Assembly (NCBI GenBank): GCA_964418415.1
Contig: CAYQLB010000003.1
Coordinates: 12,618 to 76,617, forward strand
From: an uncultured Candidatus Peribacteria bacterium
GTDB lineage: Bacteria; Patescibacteriota; Gracilibacteria; Absconditabacterales; Absconditicoccaceae
DNA length: 64,000 bases
Reading direction: 5' to 3'
The notes below the pieces were generated by a model. That model had not been told where the DNA came from and searched no databases. It worked only from the letters and a program-made list of their open reading frames with translations. Below, one piece after another: positions 10,602 through 63,804 of the stretch; within the stretch, counting starts at the first letter, position 1; each line of letters starts with the position of its first letter. Both the position numbers and the translations under genes were made by a program.

Positions 10602-10622
10602 TTTTATTCTTTATATTTTATT

Positions 10623-11573
10623 ATGTCCGGAGATCAAGAAACAACGCAAGAAAATTCAGAAGAAACCACACCAGAAGACGAGTCATCAGAGATGACGATT
10701 GAAGATACAAAAGAGCAATTGGCTAGCATGTATCTCAAATTTCTCGATGAGAAAAAATGAGGGATATTGGGTACTACAGCATGATTGGGTGTTAATCTCA
10801 ATCCGCTTCAAAAAGACGCGGTAGAATATTTGACTACGGATAAAACAGTCCCAGATAAAAAAGATTTTTTCTCAAACATAGGGAAAAACATCAAAAAGAA
10901 ATTTGTAGAAAAGTTTACCGGATGAACTATGTTGGAATATAATAAAGCAAGTCTGAATAAAATGAAAGCTCTGATTACTCAATATAAAGATGATCAGACA
11001 AAATTGCAGGAGCTTATGACACAGATAGAAGACGGTATAGATCCTACCATAGCAGCAGTAGCTGCTACTACACCAGTCGTCGCTGATGCTGTTACACCAG
11101 ATACCAAAGTGGAATATGACGACAAAACCAATAGAGAGAAGGTATTAACCCAATTAAATAAGGTAATAGAAGAAGATAAGAAGGACCCTATCAATTATCT
11201 CTGGTGAGGAAAAAAGGATCCCGAAGGCTGATTAGATTGTTCGTGATTGATTTATTATACACTAGATCAGGCATGATTGAAGACGTCACTCGATTCTAGA
11301 TCGATGTTTAATGATTTCGATACCAAGAAATTGGAGCTCAAGGAGTGAACACATGAGGTAACTACCGATGTTTCTGATATCCAGGAAGGCGATATCATCC
11401 GATGGAATAGTACAAATAAGGACTATAGCCGAAGGACATGAGCATTTTATGCAGAGAACGGAATCAATGATGTAGATATTATCGACGATGATACAGTAAA
11501 ATCAAAATTCAGTCGATTATCGTCTGAAGCTAACCAGACAACATTCCTTAATTTCGTAAATGCTATGAAATAA
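10623..11573 (+). CDS. NlpC/P60-like cell-wall peptidase (catalytic His not evident)
   Basis: ATG 10623 to TAA 11571. Motif YLWGGKKDPEGGLDCSGLIYYTLDQAGL is the NlpC/P60 Cys box, with 4 of its Gly encoded by TGA. GDII follows downstream, but I found no HVG-type His. Confidence 0.65.
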
Positions 11574-11604
11574 TATCTTTTATCTTTTTCTCCACTAATC
11601 GTCA

Positions 11605-12687
11605 ATGACAGAGTGAGGCCCAATAGAAAAGAATCTATGATTGGATAATCTCCTTCAGGGTATCACCGGATCAACATCCGAAGAGGTTTTGGCATTGAAA
11701 GAAGAAATAGCTGAAAAATATATCGAAAAACTCAAGACAGAGAAGGGGGAGTGATTATGATCTTTGATTATTGGTGAAGGTAAATCATTGAAAGATTATT
11801 TGGTATCCAAAAATATAGGAGATAAAGTACGAGATAATATAAAAGGAGTGTTCCTCTGAGGACTATTTACCGCGGTTGATCAGAAATCATTCGAAATAGA
11901 TGGAGTAAAATATAATTCTATCTTCGATTATCTCAAACCAATGAAAGAAGAATTGGATGCAGCAAACACCAAGGAAGCTTTGGAAGAGTTAAAAGATAAA
12001 ATACTGAATTGAGTGACAATAGTAGATGATGATAATCAACAAGAACAACCACAAGACACAGAAAACACTACAGATATATTGCCTATATATACAAAGTATA
12101 AATATTTGAAGGTCGGGGGTATTGTTGCTAAAGAAGATATTACATATGTTGAAGCTAATGCTGAGAATATTGTAGAACATTTACAAACAAAGGGATCATT
12201 GAGTAAGATTGAGGAAATAAAGGATGTTGATGGTAATGTTGTATTAGAGTGTAGATGAAAAACTCCATATATTCATTCCAAGGCTGCTTCAGATCTTATT
12301 TGACTCTCTTTGTTATATTACAAAAAAACATGAAAAAAATTTCTTTTGGAAAGTGCATATAGGACAATAGATCATCAAGAAGAGCTTAAAGAAAAAAATG
12401 CGGCTACATGAGTACCTACAGCAGATCCATGATATAGTTGACACAATTTATGATATTCTATAGATCTTAGTCAAGAAACAAGGTATGATGTAAAAATCGG
12501 TGGTGTTGCTTGATTAAAAAAATTAGCCGAAATGTTTGATTTTCATCCAATATCGTCAGAAGATTGGCATTTTGATTATTCAGAATTTGTAGATAAATAT
12601 TATAACGACAAAGAAGCAAGGCTTCCAGAAGCACAGAAGTTAGATGATTTATTTGAAAATGAACAGGAATATCGTCAAGCAGCCTAG
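11605..12687 (+). CDS. peptidase M15 (VanY-type D-Ala-D-Ala / LD-carboxypeptidase) with N-terminal extension
   Basis: ATG 11605 to TAG 12685. C-terminal motifs are SAYRTIDHQEEL, PGYSGHNLGYSIDL (SxHxxGxAxD) and SSEDWHFDY (ExWH). Confidence 0.8.
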
Positions 12688-13301: not shown

Positions 13302-13383
13302 TATACTATAATTAAAAGATTAAAAGACAGTAATGTTTTGTAATGTATAGTAATGAATTCGCTACGCTCATGTAATGTATTGT

Positions 13384-13752
13384 TTAATTTTTTGTTAGGA
13401 TTTTTTTGGCTTTAGTTATGAAATTATTGAGTTTAACTGAAAGAATATCTAAATTATGTATAAATTGGGTATATTCATATTCGGATAATAGATTCCTATC
13501 GTGTAACGTTTCTATCCAATGTTTGCTTTCCTGTAAAGATCATCTTGCAGTATAATAGAATTTTATAGAATCTAAATAATGAAACCTTCCAAATCATTCA
13601 GCAATATTTGCTCAAATACTATCAATAGCCCTTACAAATTGACTTCACAGTATCTTTTTGAGATCAAAGTTAAGTCTCTTATAGATATGTCGTGCTTTTT
13701 TTCCTAATGTACGAGCGATACTATAAATTTCCAGATCAGCGATTCATTTCAT
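13384..13752 (-). CDS. four-helix-bundle protein (TIGR02436 / 23S rRNA IVS protein family, Avd-like)
   Basis: MKGIADLEIYSIARTL..SQFVRAIDSIGANIAEGFGRFHY..YTARGSLQESKHWIETL matches the family signature (SxxSNIAEG, ARGSxxE). Five in-frame TGA. Confidence 0.75.
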
Positions 13753-14172
13753 TCTACAATTCATTACACGAAGTAAATTACAATTCATTACATCCGCGTC
13801 AGCGGATACATTACATATCCAATTTCGATGTCAGTATAATGTTTTCCTTGACAGTGTCAAATCATTTTTGACAAAATCAATCATATTTTTGACAAGCATA
13901 GAGAATGTAGTTCTCCATATAACAAAAATCTCTTGATTTTCTAAAATAATTCATTAAAATTGATTTTGTTGATGAGAAAGAACTCAAAAAAACGATTTGC
14001 TTGTCATGTACGATTGATGTCGTAATCGGTGAATCGATAGAGGAATTTGCTCGTAATGCATTGTAATGATTCCTTCGGAATGTAATGATTAGTAATGTTC
14101 ATTACGCCGTAGGCACATTACGCTGCAAGCACATTACCGTAAATTAGTTTTATACTATTATAATAAAATATC

Positions 14173-17085: not shown

Positions 17086-18213
17086 ATGAATAAACATATC
17101 CTCTTCGTCTTGGACTATTATCTTCCTCATAAAGGCTGATCAGAAACAGTGTTTGAAGCTATTATTTCTCGTTTACTAACAAAAGGATATACGGTATCTG
17201 TTTTGACGAGTCACTTCGATTCAGCATTGCCGCGTGAAGAAAAGAAAGAGAATTTTCATATATATAGGATCGGCAAAGGAAGAATCAGTTTTATGGTTGG
17301 GGCGTTGAGTAAAGGAATAAAAATTTTAAGAAAACATAAAGATATTGCACTTATCCATACGAGTACCTATGGAGGAGCAATCCCTGCTTCATTGCTCGGA
17401 AAATTGTTTCATAAGAGAGTGATTTTGACCGTTCATGAGGTGTTTGGGAAACTTTGGAATCAATATAAAGGATGGCGAAAAGCTTGGTTGTATAGGATAT
17501 TCGAACGTGCTGTGTTTCGATTCCCGTATAGCACGTATCATTGTGTATCGTATTATACTATGAATGCACTCAGAATGATGTACGGCATTCCAGACAAGAA
17601 GATCAGGATGATTCACAATGGCGTAGATACGGCATTCCGAAATCCCGATGAAGTTCCTGCTTTTGATGGTAAAACACGAAGAAATGAACATGGTCGAAGT
17701 AATCGTTTCGTGGTAACCTATTATGGTCATGCAGGCAAATCAAAATGACTCGATTATTTGGTTCGTGCCTTACCTGAGTTGGTTACTGTAGATGCTCAGC
17801 TCCTTTTTGTTTTCAATCTCATAGATTCCAAAAGAACACAATATATCAAAGAAAAAATAAGGAAATATCATCTCTGATCTTCTGTTCAGATATTTGATGG
17901 TTTCGAGAAAGAACAGCTCCGCACATTGATTTCAGCTTCTGATATGATCGTGGCGCCATCTATCTCTGAAGGATTCTGATCCGTACATACCGAAAGTGTT
18001 GCGATGAAAAAACCGTTATTGACAACCTATATAGCATCTATTCCAGAAGTTGTACGAGGAAATGTAAGATTTATCTCACCTACATCCAAAAGAGACATAA
18101 TCCAGGCTATCCTTGAACGTGAGGAATGGATTGATAATCCGGACTACTTCATTCCGCACAAGGAATTTTCACGAAATGAAACGGTAAAAGAACTGATTAC
18201 ACTCTATCGTTAA
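17086..18213 (+). CDS. glycosyltransferase family 4 (GT-B, Glycos_transf_1)
   Basis: MNKHILFVLDYYLPHKGG.. N-terminus. C-terminal E-x7-E region is APSISEGFGSVHTESVAMKKPLL. Track ORFs 17149 and 18004 are in one frame, joined by TGA. Confidence 0.85.
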
Positions 18214-18274
18214 AAAAAAAACTAGGTACGAGGCATAAGGAACAAGGTCCAATATGTACGTCCTAGTTTTTTGA

Positions 18275-21200
18275 TTATTTTTTGTTGCTGTTATAAATAA
18301 ACTCTTTTACATCATCTAAACTGCTGAAATATCTTTCACTAGTGAATGTATAAGATGAATATCTACCATTAATATCCTTGAAGAAATAGAAAACCTTTTT
18401 ATTCGGTGCAGTGAATGGTGATGTTTGCCATATTCCATCGATGCGCGCATTTTTCCATCGAGCTAAGATAGGTTTAGCATTCGCATATTGTGATCCTGCA
18501 GGATTATTGATATCGATGATATATTTTAATGTATCCAAGGTAGGGAAATATTTAGGCACTACGAAATTCGTCGAAGTGAACCGTTGTGTTGCGCTATCAT
18601 AGGTGATAGTGTATCTTTTACCATTAGGCGCGGTATAGACACCATTATTGATTCGATCCATAATATCTATTCCTTCTTCGCCGAATTCATCGCTTTCATA
18701 ATATTCGTCAGCGAGATCATAGAGGTATTTCAATGCTTGCCATTCTGTATCATCTTCATCGTCGATATCATCCATTTTCTCTTCGAGCATAAGCATAAGG
18801 GTATTGAAGAATTCTTCTTCTTTGTCTCCTGCATAGAGATCTCTTAATGTTTCGAAGAGATAGACAACAATAAGTTTCTCAGTGTTTGAAAGATCAGTAT
18901 CGATATCGTCATAATCATCATCTACATCATCATCTTCTTCTTTGGTGGTAACTTTGAAAGTATCTGACTTACTATCGATAGTCAGCGTGCTTTCCACGGA
19001 ATCATCATATTCATCGCTTGAGATAAGCTCTATTTTTACTGTCCATCCATTCTGTACATATCACGTAGTTCCTACAGCATTTCCGCTGATGTAGAGCATT
19101 CCTCTATTAATGATTGCAAGTACTTGTGTTCCTGTAGAAAGACCACTGATAGTAATAGTATTAGACATATACGTTTCATCAAGGTCAGCATCATCGATAT
19201 CATTGAATGAAAATGTATTTGGTGTTGTATCCAATATTCCGCTATAGATAAATGATGATGTTGTGGAATATCATGAGTTTCCAAGATTATCTGTCGCTGT
19301 GACATACCGGTAATATACTCAATTGCTGAGAGTAAGGTTAGGTATGGTAGCTTGAGTAGTTGTTGTTGTAGATCACGATCGTCTGATAATAGTGAATCCT
19401 GTAGTATCTGATACATAATATCTATATCAAGAAATTCCCACCGCATCACCAACACCTGATCGGCTGAGAACAACATTTCCACTTACACTAGCTCAACTGA
19501 GTGGACTGCTAAGTGTAGGAGAGATAACCGTAGTGTCTAGATATACAGAGAGAGATGGAAGAGTTACCGTATCTCCAGAAGTATTCTCTAGAGAAAGCTG
19601 TACGGTTTTAAGTCCATCATTTCCCGTAAGTTGTGGATTAACAATAATATGTCAGGAGATAAGTCCTCCAGTAATACTATTTACTATATCAGATCATGTG
19701 ACTAGATATTTGTATGGTTGATTAGCTCGAAGATCTATTGAAGCATATGCTTTGACATATCGGTATGGCGTAACGTAATAACGATTTGTTCCTGTCAGTA
19801 CTGCTTGTCCTGAAAGTGGTGTGGTGATCATAAACGGTAAGATTTGGCTCATACCTGTGTTTCCTGCACGATCTGTGATAATAACATATCGGGTATAATC
19901 CAAAGCATTATTCATAGTATGTATAGTATATCCTGTATTTGTTGTTGTGATAGTGTGTTGATAACTTCAGGTTACATACAAAGTATACCCAGAAATTGCT
20001 GTTTCATCGAAGCCTGTCCATGAAAACGCAATATTGTTAGTTCCGGTGATATTGAGTCCGCTCGTAGGATAATTTGCCGTAACTGATGGATTCGTCATAT
20101 CTATAGTAAAGATCATCCCCGTAGAATTATCAGCAAGATCGTAGACAGTAAATATATAGGTTCATTCTGAACTCACTATTTCCCCATCAGTAAAGTTTCC
20201 ACTATAATAGGAAATATTCATTCCACTAACTATAGCTCCAGAAATATACAAATCATTAAAATTGATAGTAATTCATGTGTTGTAGTAACCTCCACTGATG
20301 ACATTACCGGATATTAATGACCCTAATGTAGTGCCGGTAAATACAGGTTTAATTTTATCTATAGTAAAGGTTATTCCTGTGGTATTTCCTTCATTATCTT
20401 CCAAAACGAAAGTATAGGATCCATCTCAAGTAATGAGGGCATTATTAGTATATGGAGTACTGTTTAATAGAGCTCATGAAATATTAAGTCAGGTGAACGC
20501 TATCCTGATTCCGGTATTATAATATCCACCATTAGTAATAATAGTTCCTGATTGTGTTGTTCCTGTAAAGTATAATCATGGTGTTCAAAATGAGAAGAGT
20601 TTAAGTGTTCCATTGGTAGAGAAAATACATTCAAGAGATGTATTTAATATACATCAAGAATCTATTGTATTTGGTGACCATGTGTTTCCGTCGATTGATT
20701 TTAATATACTAAGATATTGTCCTATAGTTCATGATAAGACTTGATAATATATCGTTCCTGTTCCTTCATTCATAGTAAGATAGGTTGATCCAGAAATTAC
20801 CTCTATAGTATCAAAAAATGTTGTAATCAATTGTGCTGATCATACATCTCATGTTGTTGCTAATTTGATTCCTGTAGTTATTTTTGTCGGTATATATACT
20901 GTACCATCTCGGTTAGCTCCAGAAATAGTAAATGAAGTACTTCAGTGTATTTCAAAATTTGTTGCTAAACGTAGATGATCAAAATAGATAGGGAATGTTC
21001 ATCCTATAGATAAAATGTTTCATGTTAATTTTGCAGAATTTAATCCTTCAATTCGTATATCATTATTTTGTGTGTAAGTGTCATAAGTAGTATATTGAAA
21101 AGATCAGTAGGCATTAGATTCAATAATGCCATTATCTCATGAAAAATAAATTATTCTATTTCACGTGGAATTTTGCATTAATATATTCCATCATCAAATT

Positions 21201-22909
21201 CAATAAACGATAGAATTCATAATGTTGTTATTATTGCTATTATCCAAGAATATTCATTGACCGCCGTTTCATGATAATATGCTTCAAGAGATAATATTTG
21301 CACTTGATCATGTAAAGACTATTCCTTCATTATAATTGCTGTTTATGACAGAATTTATGATTTGGGTATTGTTTGAGGTGTCTAATGTTATTCAATTATC
21401 TTCATTACTTGATAAATTACATGAATCAATAATAGTTCAAGAAGAAAAAGAAAGTAAAATACCATTACCATTAAAACCAATAAGTCCATTATTATTGAAG
21501 GTTGAATACATGATATTATTACTTGTTCATGTTTCAATCACTATTCAGACTCTACTGTTATATGTACTAGTAGAATGAGTGATGGTATTGTAATCACTAT
21601 ATGACATATATACTCCATGTCCCATATTTCCTGAAATTATTGCTCAGCTTATCGTATTATCAGATGAATTGGAAGTGAATACGATTCCATTTTTGGAATT
21701 GTTACTGATGTTTATAGATGTGAAGATATTGTCCATTGAATCATCAAGATATAATCATCCTTCATTGCTGTTTGAGACGATAATCATTCATGTATTGTTG
21801 TTTGAGTTATAGAAATGTACTCATGCATAATAATTTCCGTAGACATAGATTCACATCAAATTATTACTTGAAGAATTGTTGAAATATACTCACATAGCAT
21901 TTGCACTATTATTGGCAGTGATATCAATAAATGTATTATTGTTGGAATTATACGTAGATACATTGTGGTCTGTGTTGTTATAGGAATCTACATTAGTGAA
22001 TGAACTATTACTTATTCATTGTAAGGATACCCCTTTTCATATGTTTGATGAAATATCTATATCAAGAAAATTGTTATAGGATCATGTTAATAGTGATACT
22101 CCATGGGTATTATTGTTGCTATTTATACCACTAAATACGCTGTAGTTTATATTGTTAAATGCAATTCCATATACACTATTTTGATATGTTTGTACATTAT
22201 TCATGAAAATGTTGCTTACATTAAGACCCACTATTCCATTTGAATTATTGTGGAGTTGTGTATTTATAATATCCATATAAGATACTCCAGAAATGAGAAT
22301 GCCATATGCATTATTTGATCATGTCGTATTTTTATACGCTTGGAAATCTCTTACGGTTGTATTCATGCCGCCATCGAGGTAGATTCAGAAATGTCATTCG
22401 TTGTTCCCGTCTACTCTTATTTTTTCAATAATGATATGTTTGTTTCCATTACCTTTGATGATGGCTGGATTGGTCGTATTACCTGAAAGTGTGACTATTC
22501 CCGAACTAATCAATGCTACACAATCGTTGAGTGTAATCGGAGCTGTTACATCATAAATGTCAGAATCTATCACATAGATAGTGTTTGCTACGGTTGAAGT
22601 GGGAATCGTTCATGTGAATTCTACTGTCATTCATCCGTTCAAGCATGAACCAGAATTGTATCCTGTCCAATGCTGTGTATATGCGGTGTTTTCATCACCG
22701 CTTCCATAGAGCGCTCGGATGATATCATCATCAGTCGGTGCATTATCCCAAAATAATCAGCTGAGATAATTGGAATTATCTCGTGTGATAGTTCCTACCG
22801 TCCGTGTTGCTGCATTCGCGAAGAATGCATAGATTCACAAGAAAATCCCCATAGCGATAAAGAGGATGCTCATGAATTTTGAAACGGTTGATTGTTGTGT
22901 GTGTTCCAT
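18275..22909 (-). CDS. giant surface protein (1544 aa): signal peptide, Asn-rich parallel beta-helix repeats, Fn3/Ig-like modules, acidic tract, C-terminal domain
   Basis: ATG at 22909 (MEHTQQSTVSKFMSILFIAMGIFLGIYAFFANA). There are ~20 repeats of the type NNxxNGIxxxxSxNNxI (pectate-lyase/NosD-like). Fn3 signatures are VVLSWSGVGDAVGISGYRYYV and GVYYWYVTATDNLGNSG. An acidic run EEDDDVDDDYDDIDTD is present. Track ORFs 18275, 19694, 22082 and 22835 share the frame. I checked 18995-19500 codon by codon. Confidence 0.8.
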
Positions 22910-22949
22910 GATATGGTTGAAATGATAAATGATAATTTGGGCTACGCCC

Positions 22950-23083
22950 GTAATGAGACTTTGTCGGTAATGTGTCCTATCGGACGTAATGAATTGTAAT
23001 AGACCTTGAGTCGTAATTGGTAATTGATTACGCGACCAAAGGGAGCAAATTACGCGAAGCTCATTACATCGAAGATTTGTTAC
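22950..23083. repeat. GTAATG...CATTAC mini-hairpin array in a divergent promoter region
   Basis: GTAAT(G/A/T) at 22950, 22967, 22986, 22996, 23013 and 23020. Orientation then switches to (C/A)ATTAC at 23027, 23048 and 23062. The spacers are small palindromes (gac ttt gtc, gtcc tatc ggac). Confidence 0.8.
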
Positions 23084-23309
23084 ACGAACGCAGTGAGTCA
23101 TATACTATTATATACGCAGAATTGAAAATTGCGAAATGTGTCCTATTCTGATATATATTCAACTTGCTTTTTTTATAAAAAGTTATGAAATATGTTAACA
23201 TACAAAACCATTGAAACGTCGAGGGAAAAACGTATTTACAATACAATACCATGTATGATGTGAAATACATAGTATAAAATATTTTTTTAGCATATGTAGT
23301 GATATTATT

Positions 23310-25676
23310 ATGGCTGATCAAGTACCGCAGATGCCGCAAACGCCGATGCAGCAAGATCCTCAAATCCCTGTACAAGCGCAACAACAAATCCCTGGGGCAC
23401 CACTCCAGCAGGCTCCTGTCGAACAAGCTCCTCTTCGTCCTCAACAAACGGCTAATGTCACGAAGCCTACATCCAAGATTTCCATGAAGGGAATATTGAT
23501 TTGATGTGGTCTTATCTTTATGTTCGTGGTCTGAGGATTGTCACTTGTGTTCTATAATCTTATGAACAATCCGACGCAGCTTTCGAGCGTAGGATTAGAT
23601 CCAAATACTACAAAGACCTTATTACAGACATTTTCTGTGTTATTTTTTGGTCTTTTGACCTTCCTTGGTATAGGACTCCTCATTGTCAATCTCTATAGAG
23701 TGATTACCGTAAAAAATAAATCGAAAATCTGATATATTTTTGGCGCTTTTCTTGGATTTATCGTATTTATTTTGGCTATCGTTCTCTGATCGAGAATCAT
23801 TACCCTCGTGAGAAATTTTTCTGTAGAAAATATTCTGGATAGTGATAAACTTATCATGCCGTATATTCAGCTCAAAGATAAGCCGACCTATACACGTGGT
23901 GATGTGGCACTGAAACTGATCGCTCCGGCAACGATGCGATATACACTCAATAGCAATTATTTTAATTCTCAAATAGTTCCTCCGCTCTGACAAGTAAATT
24001 TCCAGACCATAGTCTTGGATTGTGGTAATGGTCAAAAACTTAACCTAAATTTCACGACCTTCCAATTTGAAGGGTCATGTATCTACTTCAAAAAATGAGA
24101 ATATCCACTAAATCTCGAGACGAGCTATATCAATATTCCGACTTCGGAGAAAATAGAAAAAACCTTTCCAGCAGGATCTATTGTTTTCGATTCTGAGATC
24201 AATGTCGGACCGACAAAAGGCAAACTTACCTTCAATGATGCTAATACGGAGATGATTCTTGGAAAAACACCGAGCAAAGTAATGTTCGATGCAAGTGCAG
24301 TATTCAAGGATCTAAGTATGACAGATTATAAAATTATCTGGGATTTTAATGGTGATGGTGAGGCAGACAAACAAAATAATGCTTCTACAACCTATGTCTA
24401 CAATGAAGCAAAACTCTACAACGTATATGTAAGATTCCCTACGCTCAATAATTATATTTATACATTCCCTGTCAGAGTAGAACAATCTGATGTCCCTGTA
24501 TGTGAAGTGGTTGTTACTCAGGCGGAAGGAAAAAATTATACAGTCACAACCAATTTCTTCGACAAAACCGTAAATATCACTAATTATCAATTCGATATTC
24601 TTAATAGAAATAATAAAGATAAAGTTATCGAAACGATAAGAAATAATAATGGTAGTTTTACCTATATTTTCCAAAACGCTTGAACGTATGCTATCCAAAA
24701 CACTTTCCTTACAGAAGATGATAAGCAAGGGCAATGTGAAAGTGATGATATCCAAATAGGAGTGACAGATTTTCAAGTAAACTATGATAGCTATTTCAAA
24801 TCACCGAATTCTCCACAATTCAAAAAAGTAGGTAATGAAGGTATAGTATTTTGGAGTGGAGAAGAATTGATACTTACGGAGATCCCTACGGTCATAAAAT
24901 TACAAATCAATCAAATTATTCCAAATTCTACGACTGCAGTCAAAAAAGTGCAGATTGATGGAAAGCAAGTACTTTCTACTGATCCAAATAGTTTCGAATT
25001 CACTATTTCTGATAACGCAGACCATGAAGCAAAACTGCTTATAGAGGATACGCCGAGCGGTGCCAAGACAGAGATACTTATTCCTATCAAGATACATAGA
25101 CCAGATATTATCGGAAAGGTGATTGTTACTCCAGGGACCGTAGGTACAGATCCATTCAATGTCACTTTTGATGTTTCTACGACGGTTCTCAATACTACAG
25201 GAGATGAAATAGTATCCTTTACTTGGGACTTTTGAGATGGTAGTCCTGTGAAGAAAAATTTTTCTGAATCTATCATCACGCATACCTACAGATACGATAT
25301 AAACAACGAGAATGGGACATTCCATCCGCTTATCACCATAAAAACGAAGAAGGGTCGTGAAGTGACCATTACCACGGAAAATGATATTATCGTCAAAAGA
25401 GCTAATCAGACATTAAATATCTTTATAGATTCTCATCCTGCACAAGTAGCGAATATTGGCGATAGAGTAGGATTCTCCTTAGAATTCAACGGCTTGCCTA
25501 CAGAAATAGCACGAGATTTTTGAGATGGTAAAACACTGACATGCAATACTAGGCAAGAATGTGGTACAACGAATCATGTCTATGTATCGCCAGGAACATA
25601 CCTTATCAGAGCATCAGTTTCTTATGAAAATCAACCGACAATTGACGGCACAATTACCTTAAAAGTAAATCCATAA
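23310..25676 (+). CDS. membrane protein with Gln/Pro-rich N-terminus, 3 TM helices and PKD-type repeats (788 aa)
   Basis: ATG 23310 to TAA 25674. Six track ORFs share one frame and are joined by TGA. PKD signatures are IIWDFNGDGEAD, FTWDFGDGSPV and IAWDFGDGKTL..NHVYVSPGTY (the last W is CGA). Confidence 0.85.
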
Positions 25677-25692
25677 AAGAATATATAGAGAT

Positions 25693-25725
25693 CAAAAAAA
25701 ACTTCGCATTTGCGAAGTTTTTTTA
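25693..25725. terminator. bidirectional rho-independent terminator
   Basis: aacttcgca tt tgcgaagtt flanked by an A-run and a T-run. It overlaps the stop of the convergent minus-strand gene. Confidence 0.75.
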
Positions 25726-26463
25726 TTTAACAAGATGAGTTATGGTATACAATCATAGTTCATCAAGCTTTTTCATAATACCCATGACATACCCTCTAAA
25801 TTCTTTGGTTGTCGGGGTATAGGTTGTCATAATGTTGAGTTTTTTTATCGCATTCATATGTTTCGTATATCGGTCAAAAGTAGGAAAGATGTTGATCGGA
25901 ATTCCTGTTGCTATCTGTATGTTCATAAGCGAATGAATAAAAAAATTTTTTACTCTTATCCCAAATCATAATTCTCATGGATGTATGTTGTAGGTATGTC
26001 CAAAAAGGATCCTTGAGAGTATCGTTACTAATTGATCTCTCGTAAGTACATAGTCAGGATTGAAGGTGGAAACAGGGTTTCCATAATAATCACGTCCCAT
26101 GATACCGAGTTGACAAGAAAGGAGTATGTATTTTTGTACTTCTGCGATTTCATTGCCTATATCATTGAAACTGCAGTTTGCATGTTCATCAGGGATAATA
26201 TTAAACACCTTGATGGCAAATACTGACATCATCTTGGCTGCTGATTTTCTGTAAATAGGACCATCCATATTTGCCTTATTGATATCAGGAATAGTTGTTA
26301 TTCCCAAAGAATACGCCCATGTATAGAGAGGAGTCCAATCATTTTTATGTGTGGGTGTTTCATCATAGCTTTGTCTCATAAATACAGAAATCATTACGAA
26401 CATAACTATTGTTATGCAGAAGACGATAAGAAAAATATATATAGGTGAGAAAGTTTTTTTCAT
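25723..26463 (-). CDS. membrane-anchored protein with SLH-like repeats
   Basis: MKKTFSPIYIFLIVFCITIVMFVMISVF anchor. FNDIGNEIAEVQKYILLSCQLGIMGRDYYGNPVSTFNPDYVLTRDQLVTILSRIL resembles an S-layer-homology repeat. It reads through TGA 25975 to TAA 25723. Confidence 0.6.
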
Positions 26464-26652
26464 AGTATGATGTATACTGTTTTAGTAAATAAAATCCATA
26501 TTTTTTTATAGTTTGACTCATAGTTGTACATAAAAAAATACCCGCTCATGTCGGAACAGAGAAATATATCGTAAAAGAAATACATAAGATTTTTTTGTTG
26601 AAAAATCAGCAGGTTTTGATATAATAGGAGAGATTTATATTATTCTTTACCC

Positions 26653-26937
26653 ATGACTGTTTCCGAATCAGAAATCAGACGTCTACAAAAACTTTCTTGT
26701 ATTGCGCTTACCCCGGAAGAAGAAAAAAAACTCTGAAAACAACTTAACGATATCATAGGATTCTTGGGACAACTCCCTCAAATTAAGGGAGATATTTCTT
26801 CCAAATCCAAAGAAAATGCATTGGTTCTTAGGACCTTGAAAGGAGTAAAAATGGATGCAAACATCAAGAAAATCATGGAAAATGTGAAACATCCTGTTAT
26901 TAACAATTCTATCGTGATTAAGTCCGTATTAAATTAA
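26653..26937 (+). CDS. gatC: Asp/Glu-tRNA amidotransferase subunit C
   Basis: 94 aa, MTVSESEIRRLQKLSCIALTPEEEKKLGKQLNDIIGFLGQL.. This is the typical GatC N-terminal pattern. One TGA (Gly). Confidence 0.75.
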
Positions 26938-32104: not shown

Positions 32105-32464
32105 CTAATATCCATCTTTCTTTTTAGATGTTTTTATACTTGCTACAAGTATTTTCAATAATTCTTCTCATAAATGATATAATGATATGTATTCGTTTTT
32201 GTTGATATATTCTGTTTCTAAAAGAATATCTAATCGATATAAGGTTTCATTAGCTTCTTTGAGTGCAATACTCATTTTATTTATAAAGTCAGCTCTGGAT
32301 TGTCCAAATTCAGCTTCACGAACTAAAGCTCAAATACTTGTTCATGATCTTATCAATTGTTTGCTTAGAATAAATTCTTGTTTTTTCTGAGAAAGATGCT
32401 GATAAAGTCTTACGATTTTAATGCTGAATTTATAACTCTTTGTTTTAAGAATATTCTCAGTCAT
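32105..32464 (-). CDS. four-helix-bundle protein (TIGR02436 / Avd-like), second copy
   Basis: SKQLIRSGTSIGALVREAEFGQSRADFINKMSIALKEANETLY[CGA]LDIL matches the family signature, ending in the ETxYWLxLL box. Confidence 0.8.
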
Positions 32465-42188: not shown

Positions 42189-42245
42189 CATCCCTCTTAT
42201 CAATCTTCGATCCTTCGGTATTCCGGAGGATTTTTTTAAACTATA

Positions 42246-42275
42246 TTGACTTTATAAAGTAAATATATATAAAAG
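42246..42275 (+). promoter_or_regulatory. conserved promoter cassette TTGACTTTATAAAGTAAATATATATAAAAG
   Basis: Nearly identical to 43904-43933 and related to 49693-49722. It lies ~25 nt upstream of ATG 42298. Confidence 0.5.
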
Positions 42276-42297
42276 TAAAAATTAAAAAAAAAGAAAA

Positions 42298-43848: not shown

Positions 43849-43903
43849 ACATAATATGGTACGTATTGGAAAAGCGGAAAAAAGTCTAAGTCATAAGGTG
43901 AGA

Positions 43904-43933
43904 TTGACTTTTTATAGTAAATATATATAAGAA
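43904..43933 (+). promoter_or_regulatory. conserved promoter cassette TTGACTTTTTATAGTAAATATATATAAGA
   Basis: Lies ~25 nt upstream of ATG 43957 and is near-identical to the cassette at 42246. Confidence 0.5.
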
Positions 43934-43956
43934 TGGTATTTATTTTTCATATTTTC

Positions 43957-45806: not shown

Positions 45807-46817
45807 TTACGTAAAAAACTCCTGAATCGCTTTGACGAGCGGTGTGTATTCTATGATACTGCTCAATTTCTGCTTCAGATCCTTGGATCATGGGATTCAT
45901 TTGAGATATTGAAATAAGTGTTTTCTGAATTCTACGACGACCATCTGCGGTACATTTTTTTTTGACATTCTCGGCGTATTCGGCATTTCCAATATACCAT
46001 TAAATATTTTTTTTTGTTTTTGAAAAAACTGTTCATAAGCGACAGTATAGTTTAGATGTTTCAGTATCGTTTCTTTGATTTCTTCTCTATTTGGTATATG
46101 TGGGGTAAAGATTCGTGGGTTTCCGATAGCAGCTTGTCCGATCATGATTCCGTCAAGATTTCACTTTACTGTTTCGATATCTTCGTACTGCTTAATTCCC
46201 CCATTTCCGATAATGATACATTTTTTGTTCGCTTGTTTTTTTAATTCGTAAATGAATTTCCAATCCACATCGCCTGAATAGATTTGTTTGGTTGATCTGC
46301 CGTGCACGGAGATCATATCCACATAATTGCTCGCTTCGATAAGGAATTTCATTTGTTCGTTTCTGTCTTTTTCATGAAGTCCTATTCTTGTCTTGATGCT
46401 AAATGGCATTTTCACTGCTTTGTGTAATACTTTCAATATTTCCAAAGATTTTTTTCTGTCCTTCATCAACGCGCTTCCTCATCAGGTGTTCATCACATTC
46501 CTCGCCGGACAACCCATATTCAATTCGATATACGAAAAGACTTTCTTATACTTTTTTTCTATATCCTTGAAGCATTTGGTCAGCATCTTTTCATCCGATC
46601 AGAAAATCTGCATCGTTACATTCTTTTGATCTTTGTCCGTCAAAAGGTGTTTCGCGACGCCGATGGGATTGATGACGTAACCGTCTGCATTCATAAATTC
46701 GGTCCGAAGTCATAATTCATATATGTTCTTTTCTCAATATTTGTCAAAAACTTCTTTCACGATCTGGCGGAAAGCACAATCCGTATATCCATCCATAGGA
46801 GCGAGACCCAATAACAT
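45807..46817 (-). CDS. dus: tRNA-dihydrouridine synthase
   Basis: LAPMDGYTDCAFRQI, IELNMGCPA, SIKTRIG, ISVHGRS, IIGNGGI, DGIMIGQAAIGNP. Confidence 0.9.
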
Positions 46818-46838
46818 AATTAAGAATTAAGAATTAAG

Positions 46839-46869
46839 TTCCGGCTGCAAGACTTAACGCCGGAATGAC
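46839..46869 (+). repeat. 31-bp REP-like hairpin element (copy 2 of 3)
   Basis: ttccggctgcaagacttaacgccggaatgac. The same element occurs at 1996-2026 and 63643-63673. Confidence 0.85.
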
Positions 46870-46971
46870 GAAAATTAGAATGTAGGATTAAGAATTAATG
46901 TAATGAAAGTATAGAAAATTTCCAGCCGGAAAAAACATTGTTTTTGTGTTTATAAAGTGTATAGGTCTGAT

Positions 46972-49622: not shown

Positions 49623-49692
49623 AAGACAGATTGGATGAGAGAGATGTAAGAGAATCTTATTTGTCTTTATTATCTCATCTATCTTTTTAATG

Positions 49693-49722
49693 TTGCTATT
49701 TTATAGGAAATATATATAGTAT
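49693..49722 (+). promoter_or_regulatory. promoter cassette variant TTGCTATTTTATAGGAAATATATATAGTAT
   Basis: Related to the cassettes at 42246 and 43904. It lies ~40 nt upstream of ATG 49759. Confidence 0.4.
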
Positions 49723-49758
49723 AAAAACAAAAAAACAAAATCTCTAATTAAAAATTTT

Positions 49759-63206: not shown

Positions 63207-63623
63207 ATGCATATGACATGACAAATAAAATGAGTTATTCCAACTACCTGAGAGGCTGTTCTGAAAACGAACACTGTCGTTAGTACAGAAGAAATTATAA
63301 CGGTAACCAACGATCAGGTCGGTGATGTATTGTATATTTCAGAAAAAATACATATGCCAGAAACAAAAGATATCAAGCGTGTTTATCGATCTGATTTTGA
63401 ACTAAAATCTAGGAAAGATGCTGAAGAATTAGTAAAACAGAAAAAAGCAATATTTTATCACAAGGACAAAGAAAGTGATTTTTTCGTCTACAATGAAAAG
63501 GCAGGAGAATTGATTGCATTCAAAAAAAATGATTATCTGATCTACCCTCAAGGATATCTTACATTCGATGGAAGGGATTATATTTCTTATGATGATCTCG
63601 GAGATGAAATCGGAAGATTTTAA
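63207..63623 (+). CDS. hypothetical protein
   Basis: The track ORF 63330-63623 extends upstream through three TGA to ATG 63207. TAA stop at 63621. The start is uncertain. Confidence 0.4.
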
Positions 63624-63804
63624 TGGAGAGATAGAAATTTAGTTACGGCTGCAATACTTAACGCCGGAATGAGAAACAGAAGAATAGAGAAATAAGAATG
63701 TTCGTTGCTTCGGTAGCGGATTTTTTTATTTGATTTTTTCTCTACTAAGCATAGTATTGCAAAAGACTTTACAGACTTTCGATTTTATAGATTTTACAGA
63801 CCTT

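Follow-up and report, generated by a model that had tools for sequence, protein, structure and literature searches.

A candidate fibrillar-adhesin-like surface protein with an exchangeable beta-helix head, encoded beside a conserved PKD membrane protein in Absconditabacterales

We analysed a 64,000-nt stretch of DNA from an uncultured Candidatus Peribacteria bacterium (contig CAYQLB010000003.1, positions 12,618 to 76,617; hereafter the window, in whose coordinates positions are given unless stated otherwise), with attention to two large divergent genes read in translation table 25. Gene A (18275-22909, minus strand) is predicted to encode a 1544-aa exported, modular surface protein, and gene B (23310-25676, plus strand) a 788-aa membrane protein; the coordinates, lengths and strands given for both in a preliminary description of this DNA were correct, and each gene is present as a single copy in its own genome. 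We find that recombination replaces the head cassette of A wholesale between near-identical strains, and that over longer times the head has been exchanged for other scaffolds (leucine-rich repeat (LRR), ConA-like lectin, DUF4215) while the stalk and tail stayed the same. Our preferred reading, to which we assign a probability of roughly 0.6, is that A is a modular, Sec-exported surface protein of fibrillar-adhesin-like type whose specificity head can be exchanged, and that B is a constant component of the envelope.

The replacement is seen most directly against a sister strain, represented by a contig (L018) from a second assembly of another sample. The two sequences are 99-100% identical at the nucleotide level over 17829-20500 and again over 22780-26777, but just 40-75% identical, with indels, over 20529-22779 (minus strand), the strain-variable cassette that encodes residues ~44-794 of A and comprises the N-cap, the beta-helix and the first beta-sandwich of the protein. 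This variable block begins just past the signal peptide, itself identical in the sister strain, and stops past the first sandwich. In protein terms residues ~44-794 share about 50% identity with the sister strain, and residues 51-700 between 24 and 66%, as opposed to mostly 96-100% for residues 801-1544 (50-residue bins; range 88-100%) and 98-100% for the C-terminal domain; B is 98% identical, or 100% once W/G miscalls are normalised. A contig from a third run (L021) carries the same head allele as L018, cluster look-ups yielded only one head allele besides that of the window, and a metagenome scan for close A tails returned two distant loci only. Ordered by rate over 14 loci, the series is B > A tail > A head, and the identity of the A head lies at 30-56% irrespective of organismal distance, which fits replacement from a pool of alleles and not gradual drift. 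BLAST gave 40 matches to A in all (the best at 69% identity, the next at ~50%), with the C-terminal half (857-1544) at 50-58% identity, the first ~310 residues at 33-40%, and a beta-helix that varies among homologues in both length and sequence.

The longer-term exchange is apparent from the slot that A occupies divergent from B. Seven genomes (our own and G145, G065, G170, G011, G191 and G196) share the syntenic order of EF-G, a gatC-like gene and B, followed by one to three large divergent genes; this arrangement is confined to these seven, which belong to six genera of one sub-clade, and genes for GT4 and CHAP proteins come after the slot genes in four of them. Intervening genes are present in G170 and G011. 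The slot proteins of all seven have an A-type tail in common and differ in their heads, which consist of a beta-helix in our own genome and G170, an LRR with a SigLec-like domain in G145 (a member of the same genus; protein P0021), a Laminin_G_3 (ConA-like) lectin in G065 and G011, DUF4215 with PKD in G191, and no recognised domain in G196. A phmmer search with A residues 1238-1544 against 1.84 billion representative proteins returned 775 matches, many of which cover only the sandwich domain adjoining the tail; the full tail module is invariably C-terminal among these matches, in proteins of 264-1782 aa that bear diverse heads.

The predicted architecture of A begins with a Sec-type signal peptide (residues 1-33; 22811-22909, minus strand) that has K11 and a 19-residue hydrophobic core. 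A single N-terminal hydrophobic segment spans residues 7-35 and is followed by an ANA-AT junction, where the -3/-1 rule predicts cleavage; neither a transmembrane segment nor an LPXTG anchor was found at the C-terminus. The right-handed parallel beta-helix with its Asn ladder (residues ~140-690; 20840-22492, minus strand) is matched by the Pfam families Beta_helix (PF13229; whole protein 65.3 bits, N-terminal piece 94 bits, cut-off 25.9) and NosD (PF05048; 61-81 bits, also above cut-off), and Asn makes up 14-16% of residues 46-700. An AlphaFold2 (AF2) model built from a 32-sequence alignment covers residues 345-1544 (predicted local distance difference test (pLDDT) 78) and shows three-stranded coils with a period of ~23 up to about residue 690, with pLDDT mostly 90-97 within 345-690. 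The Asn-rich beta-helix of the preliminary description is thus upheld by Pfam, model and composition, whereas its number of about 20 coils is an extrapolation across residues 140-345, the model beginning at 345.

The helix is followed by a stalk of seven Ig-like beta-sandwiches (residues ~695-1322; 18944-20827, minus strand), seen in the AF2 model and in Foldseek matches to Ig-like strings. The Pfam matches to Big_13, Big_7 and fn3 are weak and all sub-threshold, and the earlier designation of Fn3/Ig-like modules draws on these matches together with the model. A combines an export signal (the hydrophobic N-terminus) with a tandem-domain stalk (the seven sandwiches), as expected of a fibrillar adhesin. 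The last sandwich (residues 1238-1330; 18920-19198; TPNTFSF...TLTI..SDTFKVTT) has no Pfam model and appears to be an unclassified, widespread repeat: in the library of 1.84 billion proteins the ~95-residue unit that starts at residue 1238 occurs in 5-26 copies in many giant proteins. The acidic tract and distinct C-terminal domain that had been described were both recovered. The former (residues ~1323-1420; 18650-18943, minus strand; D 22%, E 14%) is modelled as three helices at 1342-1406, and the latter (18278-18649, minus strand) is a tandem domain of 2 x ~45 aa with a beta-beta-beta-alpha fold, modelled at 1424-1468 and 1498-1541, which we call APNGK and in which A-P-N is invariant in both repeats. 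Within its own genome this acidic/APNGK module is restricted to A. Sequence and profile searches with the APNGK domain gave no Pfam and no PDB match, the known surface anchors (LPXTG, SLH, LysM, WxL, choline-binding/CWB) were not found in A, and its last 344 residues match no Pfam family at E<=1. When the whole models of A and B were searched by fold in PDB and BFVD, the only matches were generic strings of Ig-like domains with template-modelling (TM) scores of 0.1-0.2; such searches are dominated by the sandwiches, and neither the helix nor the C-terminal domain was matched.

Judging by where it lies, its tandem repeats and its conservation, we propose that the APNGK domain acts with the acidic helices as a non-covalent surface anchor. 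In the resulting picture this module would retain A at the cell surface, the seven sandwiches would form the stalk, and the ~750-residue beta-helix head would be displayed distally as a ligand-binding specificity module. Recombination swaps this head between strains and, in the longer term, other binding scaffolds have taken its place on a shared stalk and tail. Cultured members of the Absconditabacterales have an epibiotic or predatory lifestyle, and the likely ligand of the head would accordingly be a structure on the surface of a host or prey cell.

Gene B presents a very different evolutionary pattern. Its structural model (pLDDT 83) gives a disordered P/Q-rich head (residues 1-54; 23310-23474), three transmembrane helices (residues 59-86, 98-133 and 140-168; 23475-23819) and six PKD/Ig-like sandwiches (23820-25673), all on the plus strand. 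Pfam PKD (PF00801) scores 69.7 bits (cut-off 23.5) and is significant over two stretches, PKD_4 reaches 53.6 bits, and a third sandwich repeat has a WDFNGDG motif visible in the sequence, in line with the Gln/Pro-rich head, three transmembrane helices and at least three PKD repeats reported earlier. More than 150 full-length homologues range from 98% down to 33% identity, and B is found in 59 of the 61 genomes of the family recognised by GTDB; beyond this family matches are partial and at PKD level only. The ectodomains are evenly conserved (45-61% identity), the cytoplasmic head being the only variable part. Because B is single-copy, present in 59/61 genomes and uniformly conserved, it does not appear to be a diversifying host-range determinant, and we read it as an envelope protein that is constant across the family and under purifying selection.

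These data bear on the suggestion in the preliminary description that A and B form a plausible apparatus for host recognition or attachment, with the diversity expected of host-range determinants. The expectation is borne out for A, which is exported and multi-domain and whose head is replaced on flanks of 99-100% identity, but not for B, a conserved core gene that mostly occurs without A. Co-conservation is not supported either: A-like genes were found in 15 of the 61 genomes, and in most genera B has no A-like gene. More distant genera keep B next to unrelated neighbours (e.g. an M23 peptidase), and its divergent position beside the slot is a matter of synteny within the sub-clade. We also observed a protein family of 347-488 aa adjoining B in four genomes, on loci L006 (genome G105; 10616-11989), L009, L010 and L014, its member in G105 being an M23 peptidase; this family has perhaps adjoined B for longer than the A slot has. 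In the window B is separated from the gatC-like gene by a 246-aa open reading frame (ORF; 25723-26463, minus strand) without a Pfam match, which is present in L018 and absent at that position in the six syntenic relatives.

The divergent spacer between the genes is exactly 400 bp (22910-23309), as had been described, and carries a GTAAT(G)/ATTAC array of six forward and three reverse copies (22950-23067), which lies on the A side only, 41-158 bp upstream of the A start codon (ATG). It had been taken for the largest such array, in a control region shared by the pair. The largest array of the genome, with 13 copies, lies outside the window, and locally the rank depends on the count, with 9 copies of the GTAAT core in the spacer versus 8 upstream of recA, but 4 exact hexamers versus 7. 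GTAATG is about twofold over-represented within the window, and the genome contains 19 clusters with at least three exact hexamers, typically laid out as ++++---- with 10- or 16-bp spacing and a central GTAATGnnCATTAC. They include those at 2099-2133, 13330-13377, 13762-13814, 14022-14137 and 22950-23067 of the window and at C3:4879-5033 of the genome, along with 14 further ones, and in most cases an unrelated housekeeping gene begins, with its start codon, some 25-50 bp further on. The spacer of the sister strain is shorter by 36 bp, equal to two array copies fewer, so that copy number is strain-dependent, and the array is absent from the A/B-type spacers of the relatives. Since similar arrays precede unrelated genes and the relatives' spacers lack them, the array is not a conserved control region of the pair; it is a generic, species-specific, promoter-proximal intergenic element, to which a global regulator or a nucleoid protein might bind.

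Two other roles for the arrays were considered and rejected. A LexA/SOS box is suggested by arrays flanking lexA and recA, but arrays also precede clpP-, frr-, DHFR-, kinase- and rubrerythrin-like genes. As for a leader RNA hairpin, folding is good for the arrays of A and recA (z -5.0 and -3.3) but not for one-armed arrays, leaving no consistent structure. Sigma-70-like promoter hexamers in the spacer (23135-23107, minus strand, and 23122-23149, plus strand) occur at a frequency not above chance. Elsewhere in the window, three genes share a ~50-nt motif (TTGACTTTATAAAGTAAATATATATAA-like) in their upstream regions (42243-42292, 43901-43950 and 49690-49739), probably the strong promoter consensus of the organism, and a 79-nt repeat (46817-46895 and 63621-63699; 77% identical) with a CCGGC...GCCGG hairpin lies directly past gene ends and is a terminator- or REP-like element.

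The reading of both genes depends on the genetic code. In table 11 the region 18275-25676 yields only ORF fragments of at most 240 aa, whereas taking TGA as sense raises the long-ORF content about fourfold and opens one frame of 1608 codons on the minus strand and one of 821 codons on the plus strand. The frame of gene A contains 53 TGA codons, a number too high for Trp. When 15 B orthologues were aligned with TGA masked, Gly stood opposite TGA in 45% of cases compared with a background of 4.9%, and Trp essentially never. Because Gly is so enriched in these columns and Trp almost never occurs, the alignment indicates that the code of the organism is table 25 with TGA read as Gly, and once it is so read both genes are confirmed as real. 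The genome comprises 1.04 Mb in 48 contigs and is about 93% complete. Neighbours in the window are chromosomal (cysteine desulfurase, LexA-like, RecA, EF-G and RF1), wall-active genes (CHAP, GT4, NlpC/P60 and VanY) surround the locus, and the named homologues of A and B come from metagenome-assembled genomes of SR1/Absconditabacterales. The source is thus the chromosome of a candidate phyla radiation (CPR) bacterium, order Absconditabacterales (SR1), with code 25; a phage origin was rejected on the chromosomal context (recA, EF-G, RF1) and on zero matches to PHROGs.

The exchange of heads could also be explained in ways other than by a binding specificity module. The head might act enzymatically, as a tailspike-like depolymerase or lyase that cuts polysaccharides of the host (capsule, lipopolysaccharide or exopolysaccharide), in which case the swap of alleles would alter substrate specificity. 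Pectate lyases and phage depolymerases classically adopt the right-handed beta-helix that PF13229 matches here, the wall-active genes named above lie nearby, and a conserved anchor joined to a swapped helix resembles phage tailspikes. We nonetheless consider an enzymatic head unlikely. No pectate-lyase or GH28 family was found in Pfam searches with pieces of A (E<=1), nor any other catalytic Pfam family, and searches of PHROGs and PDB sequences returned no match. In these searches the beta-helix likewise matched no housekeeping enzyme; a match of that kind is what the preliminary description had named as counting against its proposal. Across 22 homologues no charged residue (D, E, K, R or H) is conserved at 85% or more in coils 140-600, where the conserved residues are G, N, I and S only, although the repetitive coil alignment is unreliable; and the LRR and lectin heads in the same slot are binders. 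Because catalytic relatives and conserved charged residues were not found, and because the alternative heads are binding scaffolds, the comparison favours a binding head over an enzymatic one. It might also be supposed that A and B form a single apparatus in which the PKD string of B docks the C-terminal module of A, with both genes co-regulated from the spacer. Divergent adjacency kept in seven genomes of six genera, an A C-terminus devoid of a transmembrane or LPXTG anchor, and the invariance of B, as expected of a dock, all speak for such an arrangement. It too seems improbable to us, given that B occurs in 59/61 genomes against 15/61 for the A tail, that genes intervene in G170 and G011, that distant genera pair B with unrelated genes such as the M23 peptidase, and that the spacer array is not conserved. 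We attach next to no credence to diversification of the head by a diversity-generating retroelement (DGR). The window does contain two genes for PF05635 (23S rRNA IVP/Avd-like) four-helix bundles (13384-13899 and 32105-32464, both minus strand), but no reverse transcriptase (PF00078) was found in the ~93%-complete genome, control genomes being positive, no template/variable repeat touches A, and the divergence spans 2.2 kb with indels instead of adenine-specific substitutions. A DGR was rejected on these three counts.

Several points weigh against the view of A as an adhesin whose specificity head is exchanged. For this species we recovered two head alleles only, its remaining contigs spanning B alone. 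The APNGK domain is without a known relative, and position, tandem form and conservation are all that speak for its role as anchor. Given the unreliable coil alignment, catalytic sites specific to individual alleles may exist. The orientation of A is likewise predicted, and an N-terminal segment that served as an uncleaved anchor would reverse it, with the head close to the membrane and the conserved C-terminus at the distal end. Finally, diversification could stem from phages of the SR1 cell and not from host choice. In its fullest form this last objection makes A a coat or decoy protein whose head varies to evade phages or other antagonists, much as phage receptors do, an exposed domain being replaced between strains in otherwise identical DNA. 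Patescibacterial phages are known (PMC13059738). The heads are, on the other hand, ligand-binding scaffolds, which favours active recognition, and we judge evasion to be quite unlikely as the cause of the exchange.

A further extension of the adhesin reading, which we offer as a tentative possibility, is that the slot beside B is a host-range locus of epibiotic or predatory SR1 bacteria, analogous to a tailspike cassette, in which a constant stalk and an APNGK anchor (possibly docked on B) would carry heads that are recombined among strains and genera and thereby retarget the cell to new host surfaces. To our knowledge there are few molecular candidates for host choice by the ultrasmall episymbionts of the CPR/Patescibacteria besides type IV pili. 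The locus provides a concrete candidate, a single-copy gene whose head differs wholly between otherwise identical strains, and in related genera the same slot contains other binding scaffolds. The APNGK domain and the PKD membrane protein are two uncharacterised conserved parts that might serve as handles for localisation or enrichment. Should the head prove to be an enzyme or a means of phage escape, the locus would still be a useful strain marker.

The general notion that Absconditabacteria use large proteins for attachment has already been published. Vampirococcus lugosii, of the same order, possesses large exported proteins with PKD, fibronectin and other interaction domains that were proposed to act in host recognition and fixation, with domains listed for its ten longest proteins (Moreira et al. 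2021; PMC8080830). In the literature searched we found neither the protein family of A with its APNGK tail nor the replacement of heads between strains described, and the same holds for the occupation of one slot by several scaffolds and for the status of B as a core gene throughout the family. The top Foldseek match for both A and B was the grappling hook GhpA of the predator Aureispira (PDB 9flp and 9flw), which likewise has long strings of Ig-like domains and belongs to a contact-dependent predator, but TM-scores of 0.10-0.21 and identities of 10-14% denote a generic likeness of tandem sandwiches and not homology; matches to viral models in BFVD likewise carry just generic Ig/fn3-type annotations. 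NosD is a ~400-aa copper-binding periplasmic protein encoded in the nos (N2O reductase) cluster. A resembles it in having PbH1-type repeats above the Pfam cut-off (PF05048), but is four times longer, has a strain-variable head, and lies among annotated neighbours (GT4, CHAP, the PKD protein and EF-G) that include no nos genes. In phage tailspikes of the P22, Sf6 and HK620 type, recombination among close relatives exchanges a right-handed beta-helix to which a conserved attachment module is linked. A likewise joins a conserved module to an exchangeable beta-helix, but differs in lacking any PHROG relation, in the C-terminal position of its conserved module, in being cellular and monomeric, in its stalk of seven domains, and in that a search for catalytic residues found none. 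Monoderm bacteria have fibrillar adhesins that consist of a signal peptide, an adhesive head, a repeat stalk and a wall anchor. A follows the same order of parts and has an Ig-like stalk, but in place of the LPXTG/sortase, SLH, LysM, WxL or choline-binding anchors of these proteins it ends in the unclassified tandem APNGK domain.

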